From positions 64,001 to 128,000 of the IMG/VR virus record IMGVR_UViG_3300013901_000005: a stretch of DNA of 64,000 bases, one strand, 5' to 3'. This document shows positions 2,121-61,592 of this stretch, piece by piece; positions within the stretch are counted from its first letter, which is position 1; the number at the start of each line of letters is the position of its first letter. Under the pieces are notes generated by a model that saw nothing but the letters and a program-made list of their open reading frames with translations, did no database searches and was not told the origin of the DNA. Both the position numbers and the translations under genes were made by a program. Source of the DNA: a virus. Lineage: Duplodnaviria; Caudoviricetes.

Positions 2121-5100
2121 ATGGACGAGAAAAAATATGACTTGTTTACAAATATGGCATATAATTAGAATTTTTCATATGATGATCTTATATCAGCTGG
2201 ATTAAATTCTAATAACACAGAGTTGAAAGATAAAGATACTTATAAGAATAGTGAAAAGGTCTAGGAGATGTTTAAGAATGATAGCGGCTAGTTCGATGAA
2301 TAGAAATTTAACAATTTCTACAATACAGCCTTGTCATTTTATAATCAAATGGCAACTTCTGATTATGAGACCTCCGTTGCAAAATCTGCAATATACCATA
2401 GGGATAATATATTTGCACCGGCAGAATAGCGACAACAAGGGCCGTAGTTTTAGATGTATTAGACAATAAATCCATGGCATACAACAGAAGGTCTTACGGA
2501 GTTAGGAAAAATAAATGAATCACCATTATCTCTTTCTGAATTAGCCCAGAATTATAAAGTTTTATTAAACCCCGTTGAGGCAGAGAATAATCCTTCAAAA
2601 GCAAAATGGGGAGATGCTCCAAATGATAATTTTATGGGTTATTTCTTTGACACACTTGTCCTTGCTACTTATGATAAAGATACTATTGAAACTGATCCAA
2701 TAACAGGTGAATAGAAAAAACATTTTAAAGGAGAGCCAAAGACAAGCCCAGAAGGTGAGTTCTATTACGAAAGATTGGATGGACGGGATCCATATGGGAA
2801 ATAGGTTTTAAATAAAATGAATATTCTCACAAAAGATGGATCAGCTTGGAATAGATTCGATATATTCGATTCTGATGATAAAGACAATGGATGGGTTAAA
2901 ACAATTTTAAAGAATACGGCTCTTGTTGGAGCCATGTTTCTTCCGTATGTTGGTGGATTCTTTAGAGGGGTAAGTGTGCTTACGCAGTCTGTAGGTTTAT
3001 TAGGTACTTTAGGAAAAATCGCTGTTGGTAGTGATAGTGATTTATTTAACAATATGGAAGGATGGTCGATGTCAGTTAATAGACAGACCGCTCGTTCAGA
3101 ATATGCACAGCAGAATGTTTGGTGCGTAGAAAATATGATAAATCTTATAGGTGATGCTGTAGCTTAGCTTGCTGAATAGAGATGGATATTTGAAAAAGGA
3201 TCTTCACTTATCTCTGGAGCAGATATCATAACAGAAGCTGGATAGGCTAAAAAACAAAAACAATTATTAGACTAGATATTAAAAAACAATCAAATAAAAA
3301 TAGATGCTATTCTGAAAGACCCAAAAAATATTGGAAAAGCCATGGAGGCATCTGCAATATTAACAAAACACGCTGAACTAGAGGCTGCCAATCAATTAAA
3401 AAACTTGGTTAAAAGTTCATAGAATATTTCTAGTATTATTAGTAAAGCATACATGACTGGTATTACGGTAAAAGATATGTATGGTGAAGCCAAGGCAGCT
3501 GGAGCATCCGATACTGATGCTGCTCTTTTAACTATAGGGTATGCAGCCGCTGAGTACGCACTTTTAAGTACAGGTCTTGGTGAATTGGTATTGCCAGAAC
3601 TACGAGCTGGCCGATATAGAATTGAAGCAATTAACAAAGCTCTTTTCCAAAAGAAAAACGAAGCTCTTAAATCAATAACAAATTAGTTTGGAAATACAAC
3701 AACAGAATAGGCTAAAAGAGCATATGTATCAAAAATGATACAATTTGGAAAAGACATTGTTTCTGGAGTAAAAGTTACTGGAGCAAAAACTGCAAATGCT
3801 ACTTTTGCTGCTGCTTTAGGAGAGGCTACAGAAGAAACTTCTGAAGAAGTATTAGCTGATTTTATGAGAAGTTGCCACAATATATCATAGTGGCTTTAGG
3901 GTAAAGACGATTATATGAAAGCGTTTGGATATGATACGACCACTGGGAAATTTGATATGGATGATATATCTTCGAGATATGGAATGTCATTTATAGGAGG
4001 TTTTATAGGAGGTGGTGTAGCAAATGCAGGAATGAATTACAAAGCAATACACTAGGCAATCTCGTATACTCCAGAAACCGCAATGAGAGAACTGGTTAAT
4101 ATGACCAGAAATAATGAACTTGATGAATATAAGAAATACACAAATAAATAGATATTAGGAAATCCGAATTTATCAGCAACAAATTATGATGTTATTGATG
4201 GAAAAATAATTTGGCAATAGGGAACGAAATCGGATAATCAAAATATTGCTGCACACAAAGCACTGGATAAACAACTTGAAATTATTTAGAGTATTTTAAC
4301 AGCAAATGGTGCAAAATCAGATAATGAGTTTTTGGATACAAATACTCTTGGTGATTTTCGTTTTATGGCACTGCACGATTCAACAACAGCTGGAGCATAT
4401 CTTGATCATTATAATAAATTAAATGTTGATTTAGTAAAATCAATGTCAGAATTAGAAACCTTAATAAATACAAAGGCTGATATAAATAATGATGGAGTCG
4501 TAGAGGATAAAGAAAAACGAAATGCATAGAAAGACAAATAGGATGATACACCATCAACTGAAAGAATAAATCAACAAATTGAATAGAAGAAAAAGCAAAT
4601 AGAAGACATTAAAAAAGAATTACAGGATTTACAAGAAGGTAAATATGCATATAAATTTATCGCACAGTCATTATTTGAAATGACTACAGCGTTAAGCAGT
4701 AATTTTACCTCACCAATATATGCAATATATGCCGAAAGAAAATATCACAAAAAATATGATGATTTAAGTGATGAAGAAAAGTAGAAAGCTCTTGACGAAT
4801 GGAAGAATTTCTCAAATCTTGATGGATCAATACGTTTTCAGACTCTTACTGATATGTATCTTGATATTGCAAAAAAGGCAAGTGATGTCATAAAACAACA
4901 CAGTGAGAAGTATCTTTCCGAAGATAAAAATTTTGGAAAATTTGATGCATATTTATCTAGGATTTTTAATTTTAACGCAAAATCTGAAGAAGATTGGATA
5001 GAGAATCTTTCAAAAGCACTTGCAGATCCAAATGAAGTCAATCAACTTGGAATGGCATTACATAATGTCTTCCTTAATGATGAATTGTTTAATCTTTTAA

Positions 5101-27192: not shown

Positions 27193-27514
27193 AAGTTATA
27201 TAATTTATCATAATTGAATCAATCATATGTACTATTATTTTATCATCCTCAATAGTTAACACATAAAAATTATATCCATATATACATATAATATTATTGT
27301 CTTTTTTAGATATTATAGTAATTGTTTTATCACTTTTTATAATACCATAAACAATATCAAAATTTATGTTTTTTATAGTTACTTCCAAAGGATTATCTGG
27401 ATTTATTGACTTATAAAATAGTATATTGCGAATACCTTTCTGTAATTTACCAATACCATCTTTTATTTCATATGAATATTTATAATCCCTCGTTAAGCTG
27501 TCTAATCCGTTCAT
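27185..27514 (-). CDS. Hypothetical protein
   Basis: 109-aa ORF in operon context; start uncertain. Confidence 0.55.
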   Translation of the reverse strand: MNGLDSLTRDYKYSYEIKDGIGKLQKGIRNILFYKSINPDNPLEVTIKNINFDIVYGIIKSDKTITIISKKDNNIICIYGYNFYVLTIEDDKIIVHMIDSIMINYITYE

Positions 27515-27764
27515 TACAAATATGTATAATTTTATTATAGTCCATAATTCTAGAATCTCTTTCTGGTATTCCAGGTTCTTTTTTTGTCCTTAAAACCCTT
27601 TTAATAATATCTGCATCCCAGGCATTTAGATTATAATCAATCCAAATTGACCATGGTTGGATAATATGTTCAGAATAATTGCTATTACCGATATTACCAT
27701 CCCTAATACCAGTATTATCAATTATTCCAAGCTGTTCAAGCCTTTTTTCAAATTCGTCAATCAT
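27480..27764 (-). CDS. DUF3310-like phage protein
   Basis: NIGNSNYSEHIIQPWSIW...NAWDADIIKRVLR resembles the DUF3310 family. Confidence 0.6.
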   Translation of the reverse strand: MIDEFEKRLEQLGIIDNTGIRDGNIGNSNYSEHIIQPWSIWIDYNLNAWDADIIKRVLRTKKEPGIPERDSRIMDYNKIIHICNERIRQLNEGL

Positions 27765-27822
27765 CTCCTCTGGCGTATATTATTAATACAAATATTAATA
27801 TAATTAAAATTGCGGTTACCAT
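27757..27822 (-). CDS. Small hydrophobic membrane peptide (21 aa)
   Basis: MVTAILIILIFVLIIYARGDD; fills the gap and overlaps both neighbouring genes. Confidence 0.4.
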   Translation of the reverse strand: MVTAILIILIFVLIIYARGDD

Positions 27823-28472
27823 TGTATCCAGGTTAAACAATTTACGTTATTCTGTATCTGATATTCTATTTTTGATTTTAATTCCAAAAATGATATTGGC
27901 CTATAATAGTTAAAATCAACTCCTACGTCATATTGATTTGGGAAAAGTAATTTTAACCTTTCGAAATCCTTTCCAGTATTCTTATCTTTAAATACATTTA
28001 AATGAACGTGGCCAAATAATTGCCAAGGCTGATTATTCTTTTTATATGTACCATCAAGGCATAAATATGGATAATGATTTAAATATATTTTTTGATCATC
28101 AATTATAAGTGTCATTTGCTCACTAACTCCATCAAAAAGTTTCATTGTTTTCTCTCCAGGATATCGACTTCGATCGTGATTTCCTAAAATTAGATAATGA
28201 TAACCATTTAATTGATTCAAAAGTTCTTTCCAGCGCCCGTTTGAAGCAAATGCAAAATCTCCTAAATCAAACACGATATCATTAGGTTTGACAAATCTAT
28301 TCCAGTTTTGAATAATATTTGAATCCATATCCTCGGTTGTTTCCCAAGGTCTTTGACAAAACTTTAGAATGTTTTTATGTCCAAAATGCAGTTACAGGTC
28401 GGAGGTGAACCATATATTCACCTCCGACGACTTCAAAATTAAAGGTTTAACATTTTTAAATATATTTTCCAT
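27816..28472 (-). CDS. Calcineurin-like metallophosphoesterase with an in-frame TAA in motif I (candidate ribosomal stop-hop)
   Basis: ATG 28472 MENIFKN...IWFTSD-L-TAA-L-HFGHKNI, in frame with ORF 27816-28328 carrying LGD, GNHD, NHYP and GHVH motifs. Confidence 0.75.
28398..28428 (-). promoter_or_regulatory. Perfect 12-bp hairpin immediately 5' of the CTG-TAA-CTG site
   Basis: GTCGGAGGTGAA-N7-TTCACCTCCGAC. Confidence 0.7.
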
Positions 28473-29331
28473 AAATTTTTATAATTTTAGTTATATTAGA
28501 TGTGGATGTATTAAATTTTTTCGATATATCTTTATTTCTTATTCCAGCTTTATAAGCCTATAAGACTTTTTCTCTTAATCTAGATGCGATAACATATTTA
28601 CTAGTATAATTTAAATTAATAATATCCCATTTTCTAGTTAAAATAGGTATATTTAAACTAAGTATTTTAATTTTTAATTTTTTTAGATCTTCTGTATTTG
28701 AAATTACAAGATTAGCATATCCGCTAGAATTTAATCTAGTTAAATTTTTATCAGAAATCATATTATTAAATTCTTTTAAAATAGATATCCAACTAGAATG
28801 ATTTTTTATTGTTAAATAAAAATCTTTTCTATTGAATTGATTTTTAATGCTACCATCACCATCTATAAACCCTGCTAATAAAGCATAAGTTAAATCTATA
28901 TTAAATTTTAATATCGTATTTGGAGGATTATATGTTTTCTTATCCTTAATATCAAATTTTTCTTTTATTTTACTAACTGTATCTATATCTTTATAAGCTA
29001 TTGAAATAGATTTATCTGTAACACGAATCATTCCAGTATAATTTATAAATTTAGCAAATTTATATAAATGATTAGAATCTTTAATACTTAATGTCAATAC
29101 CAATCTATTATTACAAAAACATCCATCTGCTAGCAAAAACCCCATCCAATAAAATGCCTCTGGAGTATCTAACAATAAATTAGATAAGTTTGCACAATGT
29201 TTTTCTTTCTATTTTTCTTTGCCAGCACAACTTTTGCATATAGAATTGGCTTTAATAGCATGATTATATGTTATTTCATTTTTATATATTAATCTTTTTC
29301 CACAACTTAGACAAATTCTTTCAAATTTCAT
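28456..29331 (-). CDS. Free-standing LAGLIDADG homing endonuclease with N-terminal Zn ribbon and C-terminal HTH-like segment, 291 aa (2 in-frame TAG=Gln)
   Basis: YWMGFLLADG and LLAGFIDGDG motifs. Reading TAG 29209-11 and 28558-60 as Gln extends the ORF to ATG 29331 (CLSC..CKSC) and TAA 28456. Confidence 0.82.
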
Positions 29332-29415
29332 AACATTTATATTTTAGCATATAAAAAATAAAATTATTTATAAATAATCAATTTGTTATTTGTGACAAAA
29401 AATATTCTTCATTTG

Positions 29416-29658
29416 TCATTTTACCCATTCTTTTATTTTATCAACTGTCATTACTCCAGTAAATTTATCAACGACTTTATTATTTTCTATTTTTACAAGA
29501 GTTGGGATACTATGAATTTCATATTTATCAACAATATCTTCAGATGATGGATCTGTAGCATCTATTGATATATATTCTATTCCAGCTGATTTTAAATTCA
29601 TATCAAGGGCTTTGCATGGCCCACAGGTTGGTGAGAAAAATTTAATTATTGTTGCCAT
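29416..29658 (-). CDS. Thioredoxin/glutaredoxin
   Basis: CGPC motif, IPTL cis-Pro motif. Confidence 0.85.
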   Translation of the reverse strand: MATIIKFFSPTCGPCKALDMNLKSAGIEYISIDATDPSSEDIVDKYEIHSIPTLVKIENNKVVDKFTGVMTVDKIKEWVK

Positions 29659-29827
29659 TTTCTTTGTTAATTTCTACTACTTTTTTTAATGTTTCAATTG
29701 TTTCTGCAAATAAAGATATATATTCTTCTGGTATATTAAGAAGTTCTTTATCTATCTGCATATTTAAATAATCTACAAAATGATTTCTTAAATCATTTGT
29801 ATATTTTCCAGGATAGTATTTTGGCAT
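29642..29827 (-). CDS. Hypothetical protein
   Basis: 61-aa ORF, overlaps both neighbours. Confidence 0.6.
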   Translation of the reverse strand: MPKYYPGKYTNDLRNHFVDYLNMQIDKELLNIPEEYISLFAETIETLKKVVEINKENGNNN

Positions 29828-43361: not shown

Positions 43362-46300
43362 TCATTCATCTTCTAAATGGGAATAAACTCTTGTCTTTTG
43401 CTCTATTTGTCTACCTTTAGACCAATTCTTAATTTTTGTTAAATATCCGATTATTCTATCATAATAGCTTATATTTTTACTTCCACATTTAGGACATTCC
43501 TTTATTGGTACTTTTGTAATATATCCACAATCGTCACATTCGCTATTTGGTATATTAAAAGTAAAATATTGACACCCGTTTTCTGCAGCAAAATTCAATA
43601 TTTTCCAATATTGTTCTTTTGATAAATGCGAATCCAGGTTGCAATGCAGAGCAACTCCACCGTCTAGATATTCTCCAATATAATTTCTTCCATGAAGAAC
43701 AAATTTATCTAATACAGAAATTTCTGGATCATTTGGTTTAAATATGTATGATGCATACAAATTTGTATCTTCCGGTGTCCAATACCCATCGTTTTTATCC
43801 CAATTATAATTCTTTACTGCAAGACTTTCGGCTGGTATTAACTCACTGTTCAGAATTATTTTATGTCCATTAAATTCTCCTTTATGCTTTGAATTTTCTT
43901 CTTTTATAAAATCAAATATAAATTGACAATAATCTTGGTATTCATTATTTACATTACATTTTAAGCCTAAATATTCAGCTCCTTGATTTAATCCATTTAA
44001 TCCAATTGTTAAATATTGTTTATCAAGATCTATGAATCCAGCTTTATATACGGGTAATAAATCAGCTTTATACATATCCCAAAGCGATTCATTATATGCT
44101 ATATGATATTTATATACTCTTTCAAGTATATCATATAAATAATCTTTTATTGCATTTTTAGCATCATTTCCCCAGTATCGATATTTACTTTCATCTTCTC
44201 CGTGTTCTTTTGCATATTCTTTAATTGCATTTTGTATTATCCTACTTAAATTCAATGTAATAACTGATTTTGATCCAGTCATTACTCCTAGATTGCCATT
44301 TGTAAAAGTAAATTCTTTTGTCGTAATCATATTTTTTAAACGGCAATTATGGGTTATTACCCTTGAATTTGGTAAAACAAAATATGGATTTTCCAAATTC
44401 TCTACATATTGAAAACAAAAACAATCACAGTTTTCAGCTTTTACGTATTGAATATTTTCAATTTTATAGTTAAGATCAAGATATACTGTGAAACGATCTT
44501 CAATTTTTATGTCTTTAGCATATTTTTCAACATATTCATTTGTTGAAGAATCGAAAACTGGGAATATATGGTCTTTAGTGCATTTTATAGTTCTTTCTGG
44601 TATTCCTCCTATTGAAAATATTATAAAATCATCAGTTTTTCTTTTTATTACTTTAGCTGGATGATACTTTCTTGTTTCAGGATTAAAAACATAAATTATT
44701 TTATTTTTATATTTTTTATATGCATCTTGAAAAGATGTTATTATACTAATATCGTTTTCACTTTCCCTAAAACTACATTGAGTATATCCATCAAAACAAC
44801 AAGAACTTAGGCTATCAACTGTATCAGAAATATATGTAAAAAAGCTATGTCCTCTTGCATATTCTTCTGTTACAAACTTTGCATTTTCTTCATCAAGAAA
44901 TTTTCCATCTTTATAAACAAGTGCAAAAGACTCAACTGGGAAAGTAAGAATACATTTTGATCGCTCGTTGTTAAACCATTGCATAAATTCTTTTTGTATC
45001 CAATTTAAAGAATCCCAATCCGGCTGAGTTCCATCTGGAAAATAAAAATCTCCAAACATTCCATCAAAAAATGGATGATCAAAATACGAAAAATTTATAA
45101 ATGCACTTTGAAGTCCTCTGGCGGCTGCAGGCTGATTAATTGAATCATAACATTCCATATAATACGCAACTATTATATGCGTAGATTTTACTACTGCTTA
45201 TAGTTTCCTATAAGATTAGACTATATCACCATCCTTTTTAGTAGGATGCTTTGCATTTCCACTACCATTAACTTGTAGTGTACCCTACTCACTTATATCA
45301 TTAGATATGTTTTCGGTAGTCGTTGAACCTTCTCTTTTTTGAGCTTGGCTACTGATTTGCCTGTAATTTATATTATAATTTGTATATGGATGATAAATTG
45401 TATAATGGCATTTTTCACATACCACTTTTATATTGTTTAAATCCAAATATTTCGGGTGCCTAATTACTATGTTATATAATTCTTCCATATTTTTGTTTCT
45501 GTAATCTTTTATAATATCGCTAATTATTAAACTTTGTGGCCTCAAATGGTGTGCATGTAAATTATTGGTTGATCCACAAATTTCACATTTATTTCCACGC
45601 ATTTCTTTTACTTTTGAAGCAATGTGATTTTTAAAAAACGATTGGCATTTTCTTTTAATTTTGGATTGACTTTTTAGTGTTTTAAAGTCAAAATTAACAA
45701 ATTTTTCTTTATCTCCTAAATTTATACATTGGCAAGAAGATTTATCCCGTAGCTTTATATTATTTTTAATAAGAATTTTTCGTATTCTGCTTTTGGGCAT
45801 TTTGGTTATTTGAGATATTTGTGACAGACTTTTCATTTCCTTTAAATACATATTAGAAAGCTAATTTTCAGTCCAATTAATATATTTATTAAAATTACCA
45901 TAAAATTTTAAATTCTTTCTTATTGTCTATTCACAATATCCTGTTAGTTTTTGAATTTCTATTACTGATTTTTTGTCAATAACGAATAATTGATAAAGCA
46001 AATCTTTATCAATTGAAATTCTCCTTGGATCTTCTTTTCTATTAATATGAAATTTATGCAACATGTTTCTAACAGTACATACTTTTGTATTGTATTTTTC
46101 TGCAATTTCTGTAGCTGTCAATTTTTGTGCTACATATAAATTTTCTAATATTTTTTTTGTATAAATTGTATTTTTTTCATAATCAATAAAAGTTGTTTTA
46201 ATAAATTTAATTAAAATAATTTAATTATCAAACAATTTTATTGATTATTTAACCATATAATATATTTATTATTTAGCATCCCAGTAATTAACAAAGTTTG

Positions 46301-56552: not shown

Positions 56553-58575
56553 TATAATACAAATTTAGAAGAATTATTATTTTTTATCTCTCTGTTCTCT
56601 GTATTATCTTCACTATCTAGAATCCACATTGGATTCTTGTATTTTTCATAATTAGTTATACATTCTGGTCTTGGTATTTCGGCAAAATAATTGATCCAGC
56701 CATAAAATGCACATCCAACTTCTATATCACAGTCTCCAAACCTATTTTTTAACACCTGGATACTTCTGAAGTTTCCTCCTAATCTTTCAATATCATATTG
56801 CTTATATGTTTTCAGTCCATCTCTAAATGGATTATAAACTGCAATCATAATATTGCTGTCATTTACCGTATTCCCTGTGTCTTTTGCATCATTAATACTG
56901 AATGAGCTACGCCCCTGTTTGAGGCGTTCAATGTTTCCCTGTTCCCTATTGGCTTGTTGGATAACAATTGGACTTATTTTACATTTTTCCCTAAAAAAGA
57001 CCATATATTTTGAAAACAGATCAATTTCCTGCTTTAGTGTATGGCCTTGCGTAGGATTTAACAAACCAACATGATCCACGATAACATTATATATTAGATT
57101 TGGATTATTCGGTGTATAAGTCAGTCTTGTCTCGGTTTCTGCAAAAGTACCCATTTTAGATAATCTGTCTTTTAATATTGCATATATTGTATTCGCATTG
57201 ACATTCTTATCATAAATCTCTACTTTATTTGAAATCTTCTCAATCCATGGCATACATTTCATAACCAGTTCATAATCATCATCAGAAAGAACATACTCTC
57301 TCTCACGAGAAAGTATTTTCTTAAATGATAACTGTCTGCCGAAATTCTCAAAAATATAAATGGACAATAATTTTACAAAAAGGGACATACGATTCATTTC
57401 CAGTGAAAAATATAGGACTTTAAAGTCATCATTGTCTATTGTTGCCATTAAAGGCCTGTATAAATAGGCATATAATGCATAACTGGTCTTCAGTTTTGTT
57501 ATCATACAGTTTTTTATCTGTATTTCTTATTCTTTTATTTGAATAAGCTCCGCATATCTTTTCATCCTAAAAAAAAGGATGATAACCACTCGTGGGAATA
57601 TTTTATTCCTATCCAATATTAATTTTAATATTAAATTCTCCTTTTTCTAATATTTGCCTACGGATTTTTAAATCTCCTTTCCAGAAAATTTGTGGATTAA
57701 TTTTAAATTCACCCATTTCTCCTGTTATTAAACCTTTCTGTTTTAATAAACGCAAACTATTTGCAACCATATTTTTACCTAGGTCAAATTCTTTTTCAAT
57801 TCGTTTCCTATCAGCTGGTGTTAGTTTTACTATTCCTGTATTAAATTCTGCGTGTTCGCACATCCAAATTAGTAATTGTTGCGCCCTTACTGAGTTTAAT
57901 TCATAAAACGGTGCGATAAATTTAGTAAATACCATATAAAAAGAATCTTCATTTACTGCAGTTTTAAAAACTTTCGAAGTCTCAATTGACTTCAATTCTC
58001 CCGTTTCCGCATCAATAAATTGGTGCTCAATTGATTGTACTATTTTTTTCATATTATATAATTTTTAATTATATTAAATATAATTAAAAAAATTATAAAA
58101 TCAAACAATTGAATCGTTTATTATTATAATTTTAAAAATTATATTTATCCCTCTATAAATTAGATTATGCCCTATTTAGCGGGAATTATTCCCTCTTTAG
58201 AGGGATTAGATATTTTCGGAATTAATTGAAAATCAATAAATAACATCATTTTTTTTGGTATTTTCTTCTTATCTAATTGGTAGGTTTCAATTCCTATGCT
58301 GTACAGTGTTATAAATCTTTTAAAATTTATAATTACCTCGGGATTGTCATCTCAGATTTTCCCGATTTTGGTTATTAATAATTTATAATATTACTATTAT
58401 AAACGGCAAATTCTTGTTATTTACCTGCGCCTGAATTTGAAATAATTAATGTGTATGTCTCACGACATACTCCATCAATTATACTTTCAAGTTTAGGCAG
58501 TCCCATACTTAATCCTTGATTGCTTCCTGCTCTTCCTTTTTGTACTTCCGTTATGATCTCATCTTTTACTGTCAT
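56552..58575 (-). CDS. dnaB: DnaB-like (SF4) replicative helicase, spliced (exons 58575-58423 and 57490-56552; 363 aa)
   Basis: Splicing restores Walker A SNSGAG|KTS; FSLEM, IVDH, QQANR, LKNRFG. Confidence 0.88.
57603..58052 (-). CDS. RepL-family winged-helix replication/maintenance protein
   Basis: IDAETGE, helix-turn-helix-like core, FKINPQIFWKG; no nuclease motif seen. Ends TAG 57609, or TAA 57603 under code 15. Confidence 0.7.
58075..58105 (-). promoter_or_regulatory. Bacteroidota-type promoter overlapping a hairpin upstream of the RepL-like gene
   Basis: TTTG-N19-TATATTTA; inverted repeat 58057-58097. Confidence 0.5.
58143..58205. repeat. Three degenerate 21-bp direct repeats (iteron-like)
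   Basis: atttatCCCTctataaattag / attatgCCCTatttagcggga / attattCCCTctttagaggga; CCC starts at 58149, 58170, 58191. Confidence 0.65.
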
Positions 58576-59219: not shown

Positions 59220-61592
59220 TCAGAATCTGAATTGTATTTTCTGTACCGGTTTATCGTATGCCCTAGGATCATTTCCATTTAGAACATCCCGTAAACCTCC
59301 CTCATCTATTTTTATTACATTTTCAGTGACCTGTGAGTTTGCAGCCCACTTTTCCTCTACAGTATTTCTGATAACCAAAACAAATATCTCTGCCTGTTTA
59401 TCACCTTCCTTTCTTATCGCCCTTCCTATTCTCTGGGTTCTGCGAATCTTGCTTGAATCAATACCAAGCATTATCGCTACTCCCAAACCTGGTATATCGA
59501 GTCCCTCATCGGCTTTACGAATTGTACTCAAAACATTGAATTTTCCATTTCTAAAATCATCCATTATCTGTTTTCCGTGTTTTCCAGTATCTCTACCAGA
59601 ATATACAGAACCAATGCCGATTTTCTCCGCCATTTTGATATTATTACTGAAAGTGATAATTTTCTTTCCACCTCTAGCTTTTATAATATCCCTGGCGATT
59701 TCGATTTTCTTTGGATGATTATTAATAAAAGTCTTTCTTTCCTGAATCGTTTTCATAAAAGCCATTGCATAAGAAGTGATATCCTTAAATTTCTCATATA
59801 CCTTCTTTTTCCTTAATTCTGGATTTTTCTCCAGAACCATTTTTTCTGCAAGATTTCTGCGAAATTTATATCCATTCTTACCTAGACACTTCATTGCCAG
59901 ATTGAAATCAAAATTGAAAAAACTGAAAAAATGAACAAACCTTTTATTCATCTCCCTGTATTTCTCAATATCAGGAACATCAATCATTACCTGATATTCC
60001 TTATATGGACTTACCCAACCATTGATTAAAGCCTCTGTAAGCGTAATTCTATCAATAACTGGACAATGCTCCATCACAATACTTTCAAGGCCGTCAAGAC
60101 GCTCTAAAGTAGCTGTAAGACACATTACATATTTATATTGTATTGTATCAAACGTAGCTCTGAAAGTAGAACTTGGAACTCTTTGTACTTCGTCTATAAT
60201 TAATATATCGCATTTATAATTATGCTTAATTACTGTATTAATTACAAGAACATTACAGTTGAGACCATATCCGAGTTTATCAAGTATTTCTGTCCACTGA
60301 TCTTTCAATACAGTCGTAGGAACGACTATAATAAATTTAGAAGTTGGATATTTGTTTAGTATTTTCCCAATCATATTTGTTGCTATACGGGTTTTCAGTT
60401 GTGTTATCGTTCAACTTTTTATTTGAACTTCTTACTATCACTAGTAAGCTCCGCATATATTTTTACCCACTTATTTCAGTTGGGGTATCGGACACTCGTG
60501 GAAATATTATATTCTGATATAGTCAGTTTCAATTTCTATGCTGTACAATATTATATAATATTATTTATATAATTATCTCGGTATTATCTGATAAAAGATT
60601 TTTACCGATATTGTCCGATTGTAATAAAATCCATTCCTGGATTAAACGGCTTCCATTTTTAAAAAATGTAAATAATTTAAATTTTCTATTTAAATAAATC
60701 ATACTTTTATCATATAAATAATTAATTAATTTGATTCCATTTTCTTTATTATATTCTAATATCCATGTATTGTTAGAATGTCTCTTGTCATGGCGAAATT
60801 TTCCTTTTATTTTAGAATATTTAATTATTGCATTTAAAAAATTTTTTGTTCCAATAAACTCGCAAGCTGGTGATATTATTTTTATATATTTATGATATGT
60901 TAAACATCCATCTCCGTCAAAATATCCTCTTATAAAATGTCTTATTAAATCTTTTGATTTAAATATTTTAATATCTGGAAATTTTAATGTCAAAGATTTT
61001 CTAGGAGTACAACCATATTCATTTAATACATTCCATAAATGTTTGTTTGTTAAACATATACGACACCTTTTGAATTGCTTATTATTAACTTTGCAATCAC
61101 TAATTTTTAAATTAGTATTTTCGTTTTCTATAAATTTATTAAATTTTATTAAATGTTCATAATCTAAAATTTGTAAAGAGATTTCAAAGGTATATAATGA
61201 TTTTTTGTTATTGTCAAGCGGAGAGTAACTTATATATCCATCTGCAAATATAAATCCTAACCAATATGCTTTTTCTTCTGTATCTATACAATCAAAAATA
61301 TGATTATTAAATTTAACTCTATTATGATTGTTAATAATTTTAACATTTAATTTTTTAAACCATTCTGTTAAAGTATATCTTGAAATTCCCTCTCTTTTCG
61401 CCATTTTAGTTAATGAAATATCAGTATTTATATATTCATATGATAATTTTTTAAAATACTATAATTTATTTTCCATATATTTAATTATTTTTTTTTGAAA
61501 CCCAGCCCCGTAGGTGCAATGACCGTTCCGATACCTTTATTATCAAACCATTTCTGTAGAGCTATATTCTGTCTCTCATCACGAGAAATCAT
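59220..61592 (-). CDS. Superfamily 2 helicase, spliced (exons 61592-61500 and 60395-59220; 422 aa)
   Basis: Splicing restores APTGLG|KTR; IIDEVQ, LTAT, EGLDIP, QRIGRAIR. Confidence 0.88.
60396..61499 (-). mobile_element. Group I intron in the SF2 helicase gene
   Basis: P1 GGUUUC/GAAGCC enclosing the ORF; P7 GCATA/TATGC; ends ACACAACTG. Confidence 0.87.
60565..61476 (-). CDS. Intron-encoded LAGLIDADG homing endonuclease, 303 aa (2 in-frame TAG=Gln)
   Basis: YWLGFIFADG, FIRGYFDGDG. ATG 61476 MENKL(TAG)YFKKLS(TAG)EY is in frame with the track ORF. Confidence 0.85.

Follow-up and report, generated by a model that had tools for sequence, protein, structure and literature searches.

The window analysed here comprises 64,000 nucleotides of a phage genome (Duplodnaviria; Caudoviricetes), positions 64,001 to 128,000 of IMG/VR record IMGVR_UViG_3300013901_000005. 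Its minus strand carries a free-standing LAGLIDADG homing endonuclease gene (HEG) that runs into the start of a phosphoesterase (PE) gene, and the PE gene is itself broken by a stop codon within a catalytic motif. The HEG occupies positions 28456-29331 and has 291 codons when TAG is read as sense. Its stop codon (28456-28458) lies inside the PE open reading frame (ORF), such that the 3′ end of the HEG overlaps the first 17 nt of PE. The PE gene begins with the ATG at 28470-28472, the same start that is used by HEG-less relatives, and its first segment (28395-28472; MENIFKNVKPLILKSSEVNIWFTSDL) extends to Leu26. There the stop-hop site (28389-28397) is composed of a take-off codon, CTG (28395-28397), a TAA stop codon (28392-28394), and a landing codon, again CTG (28389-28391). 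The second segment (27816-28391), beginning LHFGHKNILKF..., reads from the landing codon to the stop codon at 27816-27818. The first-pass annotation of this DNA, made from its letters and predicted ORFs, had described a LAGLIDADG ORF ending at 28456, overlapping the PE start and lying about 60 nt from an insert. These coordinates and distances are correct, with 62 nt separating the HEG stop from the 6-nt insert TAA CTG (28389-28394). Comparison with related loci supports a model in which the nuclease gene, the 5′ end of PE, and the insert travel together as a mobile cassette whose insert would be skipped by the ribosome.

The PE product matches Pfam Metallophos (PF00149) with 22.7 bits, relative to a cut-off of 21.5, and PHROG 547 at 4e-43. 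The calcineurin-like motifs GDF, GNHD, and GHVH are present, and the DxH motif is intact only when the 6 nt are skipped. Motif I of the window reads S-D-L-TAA-L-H-F-G-H, whereas all uninterrupted homologues carry SD(L/T)HFGH, so the window gene is longer by two codons. An assembly error is ruled out by the identical HEG and insert sequence of three independent assemblies (L006, L007, and L008). For the 21 codons between the landing codon and the first internal ATG, comparison with the HEG-less locus L001 gives a synonymous divergence (dS) of 1.08 and a nonsynonymous divergence (dN) of 0.08, a ratio of 0.075. By this measure the codons after the PE stop are under purifying selection, which rules out both a pseudogene and re-initiation at the internal ATG (28326-28328), upstream of which they lie. 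Ribosomes most likely hop the 6-nt insert, judging from these sequence features.

Immediately before the stop-hop site, the PE sequence can form a hairpin (28398-28428, minus strand) of 12 Watson-Crick pairs and one G-U pair with a 5-nt loop, wherein the 3′ arm ends at the Asp codon beside the take-off codon. The fold of the window hairpin has a z-score of -4.4. Distinct hop alleles among the relatives fold with -15.9 to -23.5 kcal/mol (median -19.8, n=11), and their 3′ arm likewise stops at the Asp codon. The corresponding medians for intact alleles are only -3.0 kcal/mol beside an HEG and -4.9 kcal/mol where the HEG is lacking (p 1.3e-7 versus hop alleles). Evidence of covariation comes from seven distinct stems, in which three of the ten outer pairs show compensatory changes and 68 of 70 cells are paired, a result that none of 2000 shuffles reaches. 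Pairs were counted by a script with hand-anchored arms, as MAFFT had placed a gap in a hairpin arm. The amino-acid changes encoded by the 5′ arm (E, G, D) parallel synonymous changes in the 3′ arm. A Shine-Dalgarno-like sequence in the 5′ arm, GGAGGTG, was considered as a signal and rejected, as its sequence varies among the other hop alleles (GGGGTG, GGACGTG, GGCGTA).

The predicted nuclease consists of an N-terminal CxxC...CxxC zinc finger, two LAGLIDADG motifs, and a C-terminal helix-turn-helix (HTH) domain. Both Asp residues of the motifs GFLLADG (D69) and GFIDGDG (D159) are invariant in 21 homologues. The protein matches PHROG 4645 ('endonuclease') at 2.5e-21 and falls short of the Pfam gathering thresholds for LAGLIDADG_3 (21.1 versus 22.5) and LAGLIDADG_1 (19.7 versus 23.1); it is a divergent LAGLIDADG subfamily. 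A profile of the family recovers I-CreI, I-DmoI, and I-CvuI from the PDB, with the I-CreI and I-DmoI chains at 2e-6 to 4e-3, and in profile searches the C-terminus resembles resolvase- and paired-type HTH domains. An AlphaFold2 (AF2) model with a pLDDT of 93.3 adopts the tandem alpha-beta-beta-alpha-beta-beta-alpha fold. Its top Foldseek matches are the monomeric LAGLIDADG enzymes I-GzeII, I-AniI, I-HjeMI, and I-SmaMI (E 2e-8 to 2e-7), and the match probability is 1.00 for these enzymes and for I-OnuI. Sequence and model together thus suggest a monomeric two-domain LAGLIDADG homing endonuclease with a putative site-specific cleavage activity on the HEG-less allele.

Two TAG codons interrupt the HEG, at codon 41 (29209-29211, minus strand) and codon 258 (28558-28560, minus strand). 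Three HEGs with 47-75% identity, those of the window, L015, and L028, have the first in the same alignment column. Since the HTH domain lies beyond codon 258, the second TAG must be sense for the full protein to be made. Comparison with the L015 copy (74% identical) gives dN 0.13 and dS 0.87, a ratio of about 0.15. This ratio and the retention of the codon-41 TAG in three HEGs argue that the HEG is a live gene under purifying selection that needs TAG decoding. The late genes of the phage are TAG-recoded. The plus strand of positions 1-26858 contains giant ORFs of up to 3,204 amino acids that exist only with TAG as sense, at roughly 100 TAG codons per gene. TAG is nearly absent from the minus-strand block at 26911-64000, and the genuine stop codons throughout the phage are TAA and TGA. 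Genes for tRNA(CUA), tRNA-Thr(UGU), tRNA-Gln(UUG), and tRNA-Leu(UAA) are located outside the window, at genome positions 131923-151662.

Comparison with HEG-less relatives also defines a leader between the stop codon of an upstream thioredoxin gene and the HEG start (29332-29415, minus strand). L001-L005 and L012 lack it, and in them 3-7 nt separate the thioredoxin stop from the PE ATG. The leader is 83-87% identical to that of HEG-bearing L015, despite otherwise unrelated flanks. The HEG promoter presumably lies within this leader. A sigma-70 promoter scan performed no better than on shuffles, a terminator scan returned no terminator-like site, and the sole match of an Rfam scan of 27500-29800 was a chance snoRNA-like hit (E 0.83).

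That these parts form a single unit is indicated by pairs of related genomes. L015 shares flanks of 95-100% identity on both sides with the HEG-less, uninterrupted loci L009 and L011, and carries an extra segment of about 1 kb. This segment contains the HEG together with a PE 5′ end that resembles the one in the window and includes both the hairpin and CTG TAA CTG, and identity to L011 resumes 100-170 nt past the insert. Similarly, L093 has flanks 93-96% identical to those of the HEG-less, intact loci L067 and L069. In L093 the first 48 nt of PE are swapped for about 1,000 nt comprising a leader, the HEG, a replacement for the N-terminal coding sequence, and the insert, and perfect identity restarts at the landing codon. 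L173 has a third variant of the HEG, likewise with CTG TAA CTG, and its alignment to the HEG-less locus L017 also begins exactly at the landing codon. These three genome pairs indicate that HEG and insert have been transferred as one block into uninterrupted alleles. The HEG is thus present or absent at a fixed site in the comparisons of L015 with L009 and L011, L093 with L067 and L069, L173 with L017, and the window with L001 and L012. In the last of these, dS over the first 26 PE codons is 0.069, versus 0.8-1.1 downstream, which fits a recent shared origin of that 5′ piece. Loss of the nuclease is also evident. In L175 (3990-4125), the HEG is deleted save for the last ~45 nt of its ORF (...NVIRILKTYGEYI and the stop codon), and the hairpin and CTG TAA CTG are kept; therefore, insert alleles that lack an HEG can arise by HEG loss.

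The wider distribution was assessed with 80 loci from a PE-family search and 80 more from an HEG-family search. The former used an alignment as the query, as a single-protein PE query had found no loci. About 40 of the 80 HEG relatives, all on viral contigs, are located within ~700 nt of a PE 5′ end, mostly directly upstream and sometimes in divergent orientation. The genes upstream of the HEG differ, being thioredoxin in the window and other genes in L015, L028, L065, and L093. About half of the HEG-adjacent PE genes are interrupted near motif I, and such interruptions are rare in HEG-less PE genes. With PE dereplicated at 80-95% identity, 16-18 genes beside an HEG are interrupted and 17 are intact, as compared with 2-4 interrupted and 26-35 intact genes where the HEG is lacking. 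The resulting odds ratio is 9-12, with Fisher p-values of 1e-4 to 5e-4 that are indicative only, given that the two locus sets come from different pattern-seeded searches and are phylogenetically non-independent. In a quick IQ-TREE phylogeny of the HEG, 9 of the 13 members of the window subclade adjoin a hop (one +12 row was mislabelled in the grouping).

At least 17 distinct interruptions were found, all within the ~20 nt that code for SDxHFGHxN, and their lengths are 1, 5, 6, 7, 8, 9, and 12 nt. The 6-nt alleles read CTG TAA CTG, or CTG TGA CTG in HEG-less sister alleles. Inserts of 5 nt occur as ACC/ACT TA ACT, ACT TG ACT, and, after GHT, ACT TA ACA; those of 8 nt as ACG TAGTT ACG, ACC TAGTG ACC, and ACC TAGGC ACT. 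Longer forms are ACA TAGTGA ACT (9 nt) and ACC TAGGTAGGA ACT (12 nt), and inserts of 7 nt are located one codon later, as CAT TAGG CAC and the less clear CAC TAGT TAT. With inserts of 5, 7, or 8 nt, the reading frame and the DxH motif are restored only by a hop. Thr codons are the most frequent take-off codons among related hop alleles, and the phage encodes tRNA-Thr(UGU). The CAC TAGT TAT allele belongs to L120 (3793-3850), where the hairpin encloses the PE start codon and the landing codon is not synonymous; a hop there would depend on G-U pairing at the first position of the codon, and its reading is uncertain.

The 1-nt cases are four HEG-adjacent PE genes with an insertion after the Phe codon of DxHF: TTT TAA C, TTT CGA C, TTT CAA T, and TTTTTT C. 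They are found in L103 (~3790-3815), L104 (~3770-3790), L105 (~3775-3795), and L140 (minus strand). From their sequences these alleles are candidate programmed +1 frameshifts, and the design of TTT TAA C is one that we take to resemble the prfB site. Intact alleles beside an HEG also have a distinctive feature, in that the Ser of the SD dipeptide is encoded by AGY rather than TCN in 9 of 17 cases, versus 1 of 45 HEG-less alleles. AGY codons are found at the HEG-adjacent loci L065, L086, L098, L104, L105, L109, L115, L129, L140, and L149-L151. This switch may represent divergence of the target site without a change in amino acid, a comparison that is confounded by phylogenetic distance.

The same pairing recurs at a second, unrelated gene. 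A sister clade of the HEG is located 5′ of a gene for polynucleotide kinase-phosphatase (PNKP; PF13671 and PF25109), as in L124 (2880-3930) and in L126, L132-L139, L143, L146, and L029 (1670-2640). Here it is the Walker A motif that is interrupted, as RGLQ-TGA-QGSGKST (CAG TGA CAG, +6) or, in L029, as GPP-TAA-Y-PASGKST (CCA TAATAT CCA, +9). The PNKP hop sites directly follow a hairpin of 12-16 bp, and three PNKP genes without an HEG have no interruption. L124 and L126 are 91-100% identical over the HEG, the PNKP 5′ end, and the hop, and 40-70% identical in both flanks. When PE and PNKP are taken together, a stop codon directly follows the take-off codon in all 15 distinct hop alleles, and take-off and landing codons are synonymous in 14 of them.

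These comparisons support a model where ~1 kb of the minus strand, from approximately 29415 to 28389, is a mobile homing cassette composed of the leader, the HEG, the first 26 codons of PE, the hairpin, and the insert, in which the insert would be protective and would be hopped by the ribosome. We assign this model a probability of roughly 0.62. The first-pass annotation had likewise joined HEG and bypass insert into one mobile cassette and had proposed to look for their co-occurrence across related phages. Block transfer into uninterrupted alleles and the recurrence at PNKP support the former, and the odds ratio of 9-12 retained after dereplication agrees with the latter. The neighbour upstream of the HEG varies by locus, and the constant partner is the PE 5′ end, not thioredoxin.

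In such a model, the nuclease would be made only once the phage's own amber-suppressor tRNA reads its two TAG codons, probably late in infection. In a co-infected cell it would cleave HEG-less relatives at their uninterrupted motif-I sequence, for which the presumed target is ...TTY ACN TCN GAY NNN / CAY TTY GGN CAY.... The break would then be repaired with the HEG-bearing genome as template, and HEG, PE 5′ end, and insert would be acquired together. Because the insert sits in the middle of the presumed site, it would split the target and the carrier genome would escape cutting. Indirect support for such protection comes from the enrichment of inserts beside the HEG and from the block edges at the landing codon. 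Translation of the interrupted gene would bring CUG (Leu26) to the P site and UAA to the A site, where termination is predicted to be slow. The hairpin would refold on the mRNA leaving the ribosome, and peptidyl-tRNA-Leu would re-pair 6 nt downstream. The hop would yield an intact SDLHFGH metal-binding motif with the predicted junction peptide ...IWFTSDLHFGHK.... We infer the position of the cut, the immunity conferred by the insert, the hopping of ribosomes and its efficiency, and the late timing from the sequences of the window and its relatives.

Several observations weigh against the cassette model, in addition to the non-independence of the locus sets. All four combinations of HEG and insert exist, and neither feature strictly requires the other. 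Inserts are found without an HEG in L001-L005, L012, L172, and L087, and intact motifs beside an HEG in L028, L065, L086, L098, and many distant alleles. The hairpin is also present in four uninterrupted HEG-less alleles (L013, L019, L020, and L023), where it has 10-12 bp, ends at the motif-I Asp codon, and folds with -15 to -16 kcal/mol; these alleles could be precursors or revertants. Furthermore, about five 22-mers of the PE gene are equally well conserved, with motif I being just one of them, and the low dS at the start of PE could stem from constraint at the RNA level rather than from recent transfer.

The existence of all four combinations and the presence of the hairpin in uninterrupted alleles are also what would favor HEG and insert being functionally independent neighbours. 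The HEG might recognize the junction upstream of PE, where its own insertion destroys the site, and the stop-hop might throttle or time PE synthesis and merely be co-converted, as co-conversion alone would carry any nearby marker. However, it is the PE 5′ end that HEG-bearing loci have in common, with the upstream junction varying among them, and many different inserts fall within one ~20-nt stretch with an approximately 10-fold enrichment beside the HEG. Moreover, the block boundary lies exactly at the landing codon in two genome pairs, and PNKP carries the same HEG and hop pairing. We regard such independence as unlikely.

The varied lengths of the inserts at nearly one position raise another explanation, which we hold to be about as doubtful. 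The HEG might indeed cut motif I, and each insert might be the scar of an imprecise repair that survived only where a hop or a +1 shift rescued the protein. Immunity would then be a by-product or would derive mainly from other substitutions, and the excess of AGY Ser codons in intact HEG-adjacent alleles suggests that there are other routes to site divergence. Random scars do not readily account for a stop codon after take-off and a synonymous landing codon in nearly every insert, for a covarying hairpin that abuts the site, or for a conserved module that has moved intact across lineages. The matched codons with their stop, the covarying hairpin, and the intact transfer thus point to a selected device.

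Two other explanations are very improbable. Gene callers annotate only the downstream 170-aa ORF (P0001, P0003, and P0004), as if PE were a pseudogene or were made only from the internal ATG without motif I and without any hop, but the 21 codons upstream of that ATG show strong constraint with dS saturated, every interrupted allele has kept the remainder of the gene intact, and take-off and landing codons match. As for TAA being read through or recoded like TAG to give SDL-X-LHFGH with two extra residues, the phage does recode TAG and the 6-, 9-, and 12-nt inserts are in frame, but TAA and TGA serve as genuine stops, readthrough could not rescue sister alleles with 5-, 7-, and 8-nt inserts, and, as is established for calcineurin-like phosphoesterases, the metal site would be disrupted if two more residues separated the Asp of DxH from its His.

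The cassette resides in a phage whose window has a G+C content of 29% and DNA matches to crAss-like phages, and whose whole genome is 155,233 bp. A second LAGLIDADG-like ORF is located at 60565-61476 (minus strand). It is ~30% identical to the HEG over 130 amino acids, matches Pfam LAGLIDADG_3 at 1.6e-4, and has one in-frame TAG. Several further minus-strand ORFs at 40296-62529 are open only if TAG is sense, including a RepL-like ORF (57603-58052) and an HTH protein (45216-46121). Some of these may be artefacts of exon/intron boundaries, and the HEG may not be the sole TAG-dependent gene in the minus-strand block. The HEG region also has a DNA match to Lak megaphages, which is a distant LAGLIDADG sequence (~30% identity) without an adjoining PE or PNKP. 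Gene callers truncate the PE and PNKP genes and split the TAG-containing nuclease gene.

LAGLIDADG endonucleases of introns and inteins, as well as the seg and mob endonucleases of T-even phages, target conserved coding motifs, have a carrier made immune by a split or altered site, and co-convert flanking markers. The cassette would resemble these systems in all three respects. It is unlike introns and inteins in that the sequence that splits the site is removed from neither RNA nor protein and is instead skipped by the ribosome. The PE gene of L173 carries both solutions, with the cassette at motif I and an intron-like insert between GNH and the final D of GNHD. The latter insert is about 1 kb long (L173:1144-2163), contains another, unrelated LAGLIDADG ORF, and is absent from L017.

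The mobA-gene 60 cassette of phage T4 (Bonocora et al. 2011 PNAS, as cited in Manning & Atkins, bioRxiv 10.1101/2022.08.31.505936) is alike in placing a free-standing homing endonuclease beside a gene with an essential motif. There too, a non-coding insert lies between matched take-off and landing codons with a stop codon directly after take-off, and the element supplies a replacement N-terminal coding piece that ends at or just past the landing codon. Both systems have an upstream stem-loop and lineages that lost the nuclease but kept the bypass. Nuclease loss with retention of the bypass has been described for MobA elements, and a 5′ stem-loop has been proposed to propel bypassing (bioRxiv 10.1101/2022.08.31.505936; for gene 60, a propelling 5′ stem-loop is also treated in bioRxiv 10.1101/2024.12.09.627546). 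However, MobA is an HNH nicking enzyme rather than a two-domain LAGLIDADG protein, and gene 60 has a 50-nt gap with a take-off stem-loop, a nascent-peptide signal, and an internal Shine-Dalgarno sequence. The gaps here are 5-12 nt (6 in the window) with a single 5′ hairpin. In contrast to the topoisomerase host gene of T4, the host gene is not split in two and there are at least two target genes. The carriers are Crassvirales-like gut phages, and the systems have no sequence homology. Thus, the cassette is an analogue of MobA/gene 60, not a member by descent. The suggestion of an independent origin, made when the locus was first annotated, fits with these data, as nuclease family, insert length, and host genes are all unlike those of T4.

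Short hops over slow-to-decode or stop codons were reportedly described in Escherichia coli by Weiss et al. in 1987. In E. coli reporters and mutants, as predicted for the cassette, the peptidyl-tRNA leaves the codon before a stop and re-pairs with a matched codon a few nucleotides downstream, with 9 nt encoding one amino acid (bioRxiv 10.1101/2022.08.31.505936). Those hops are of low efficiency and are not known as natural gene designs, whereas the arrangement here is conserved, has a covarying hairpin, and is located inside catalytic motifs of natural phage genes. The mitochondrial 'byps' of Magnusiomyces capitatus are likewise short, mobile, and numerous, and bypassing allows essential genes to tolerate them, but they are GC-cluster-like elements of 27-55 nt without an associated endonuclease and operate in a mitochondrial translation system (bioRxiv 10.1101/2022.08.31.505936). 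Full-text searches of the literature returned no account of short bypass linked to a LAGLIDADG gene, nor of sites of this kind in crAss-like phages. Some RNA polymerase genes of crAss-like phages have been noted to contain unexplained stops and frameshifts in their conserved motifs (PMC7886860).

The cassette most likely represents a second, widespread version of the rare strategy exemplified by T4 gene 60. To our knowledge, programmed translational bypassing in phages has so far rested on T4 gene 60 and its homologues. The loci described here add over 15 naturally occurring, probable short bypass sites of diverse sequence, along with four candidate +1 sites. These are found in two unrelated host genes and are linked to a different nuclease family, and the bypass sites share a simple covarying stimulator hairpin. 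It is now possible to test what minimum is needed for a ribosome to hop, whether refolding of mRNA on the exit side drives forward movement, and whether recoding has been taken up time and again by homing endonucleases as a means of immunity. For annotation, the consequence is truncated PE and kinase genes and a nuclease gene split at its TAG codons.

We consider it an even bet that gut phages harbor a class of LAGLIDADG-borne 'translational mini-introns' in at least two genes, at the DxH motif of PE and the Walker A motif of PNKP. If so, a mini-intron would be a portable hairpin with a 5-12-nt stop-hop or a +1 slip site in the codons of a catalytic motif. Such inserts would split the nuclease's own target and would be removed by the ribosome, not by splicing. 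Bacteroidota ribosomes would then perform programmed bypassing over short distances often and efficiently, and the process would not be a curiosity of T4.

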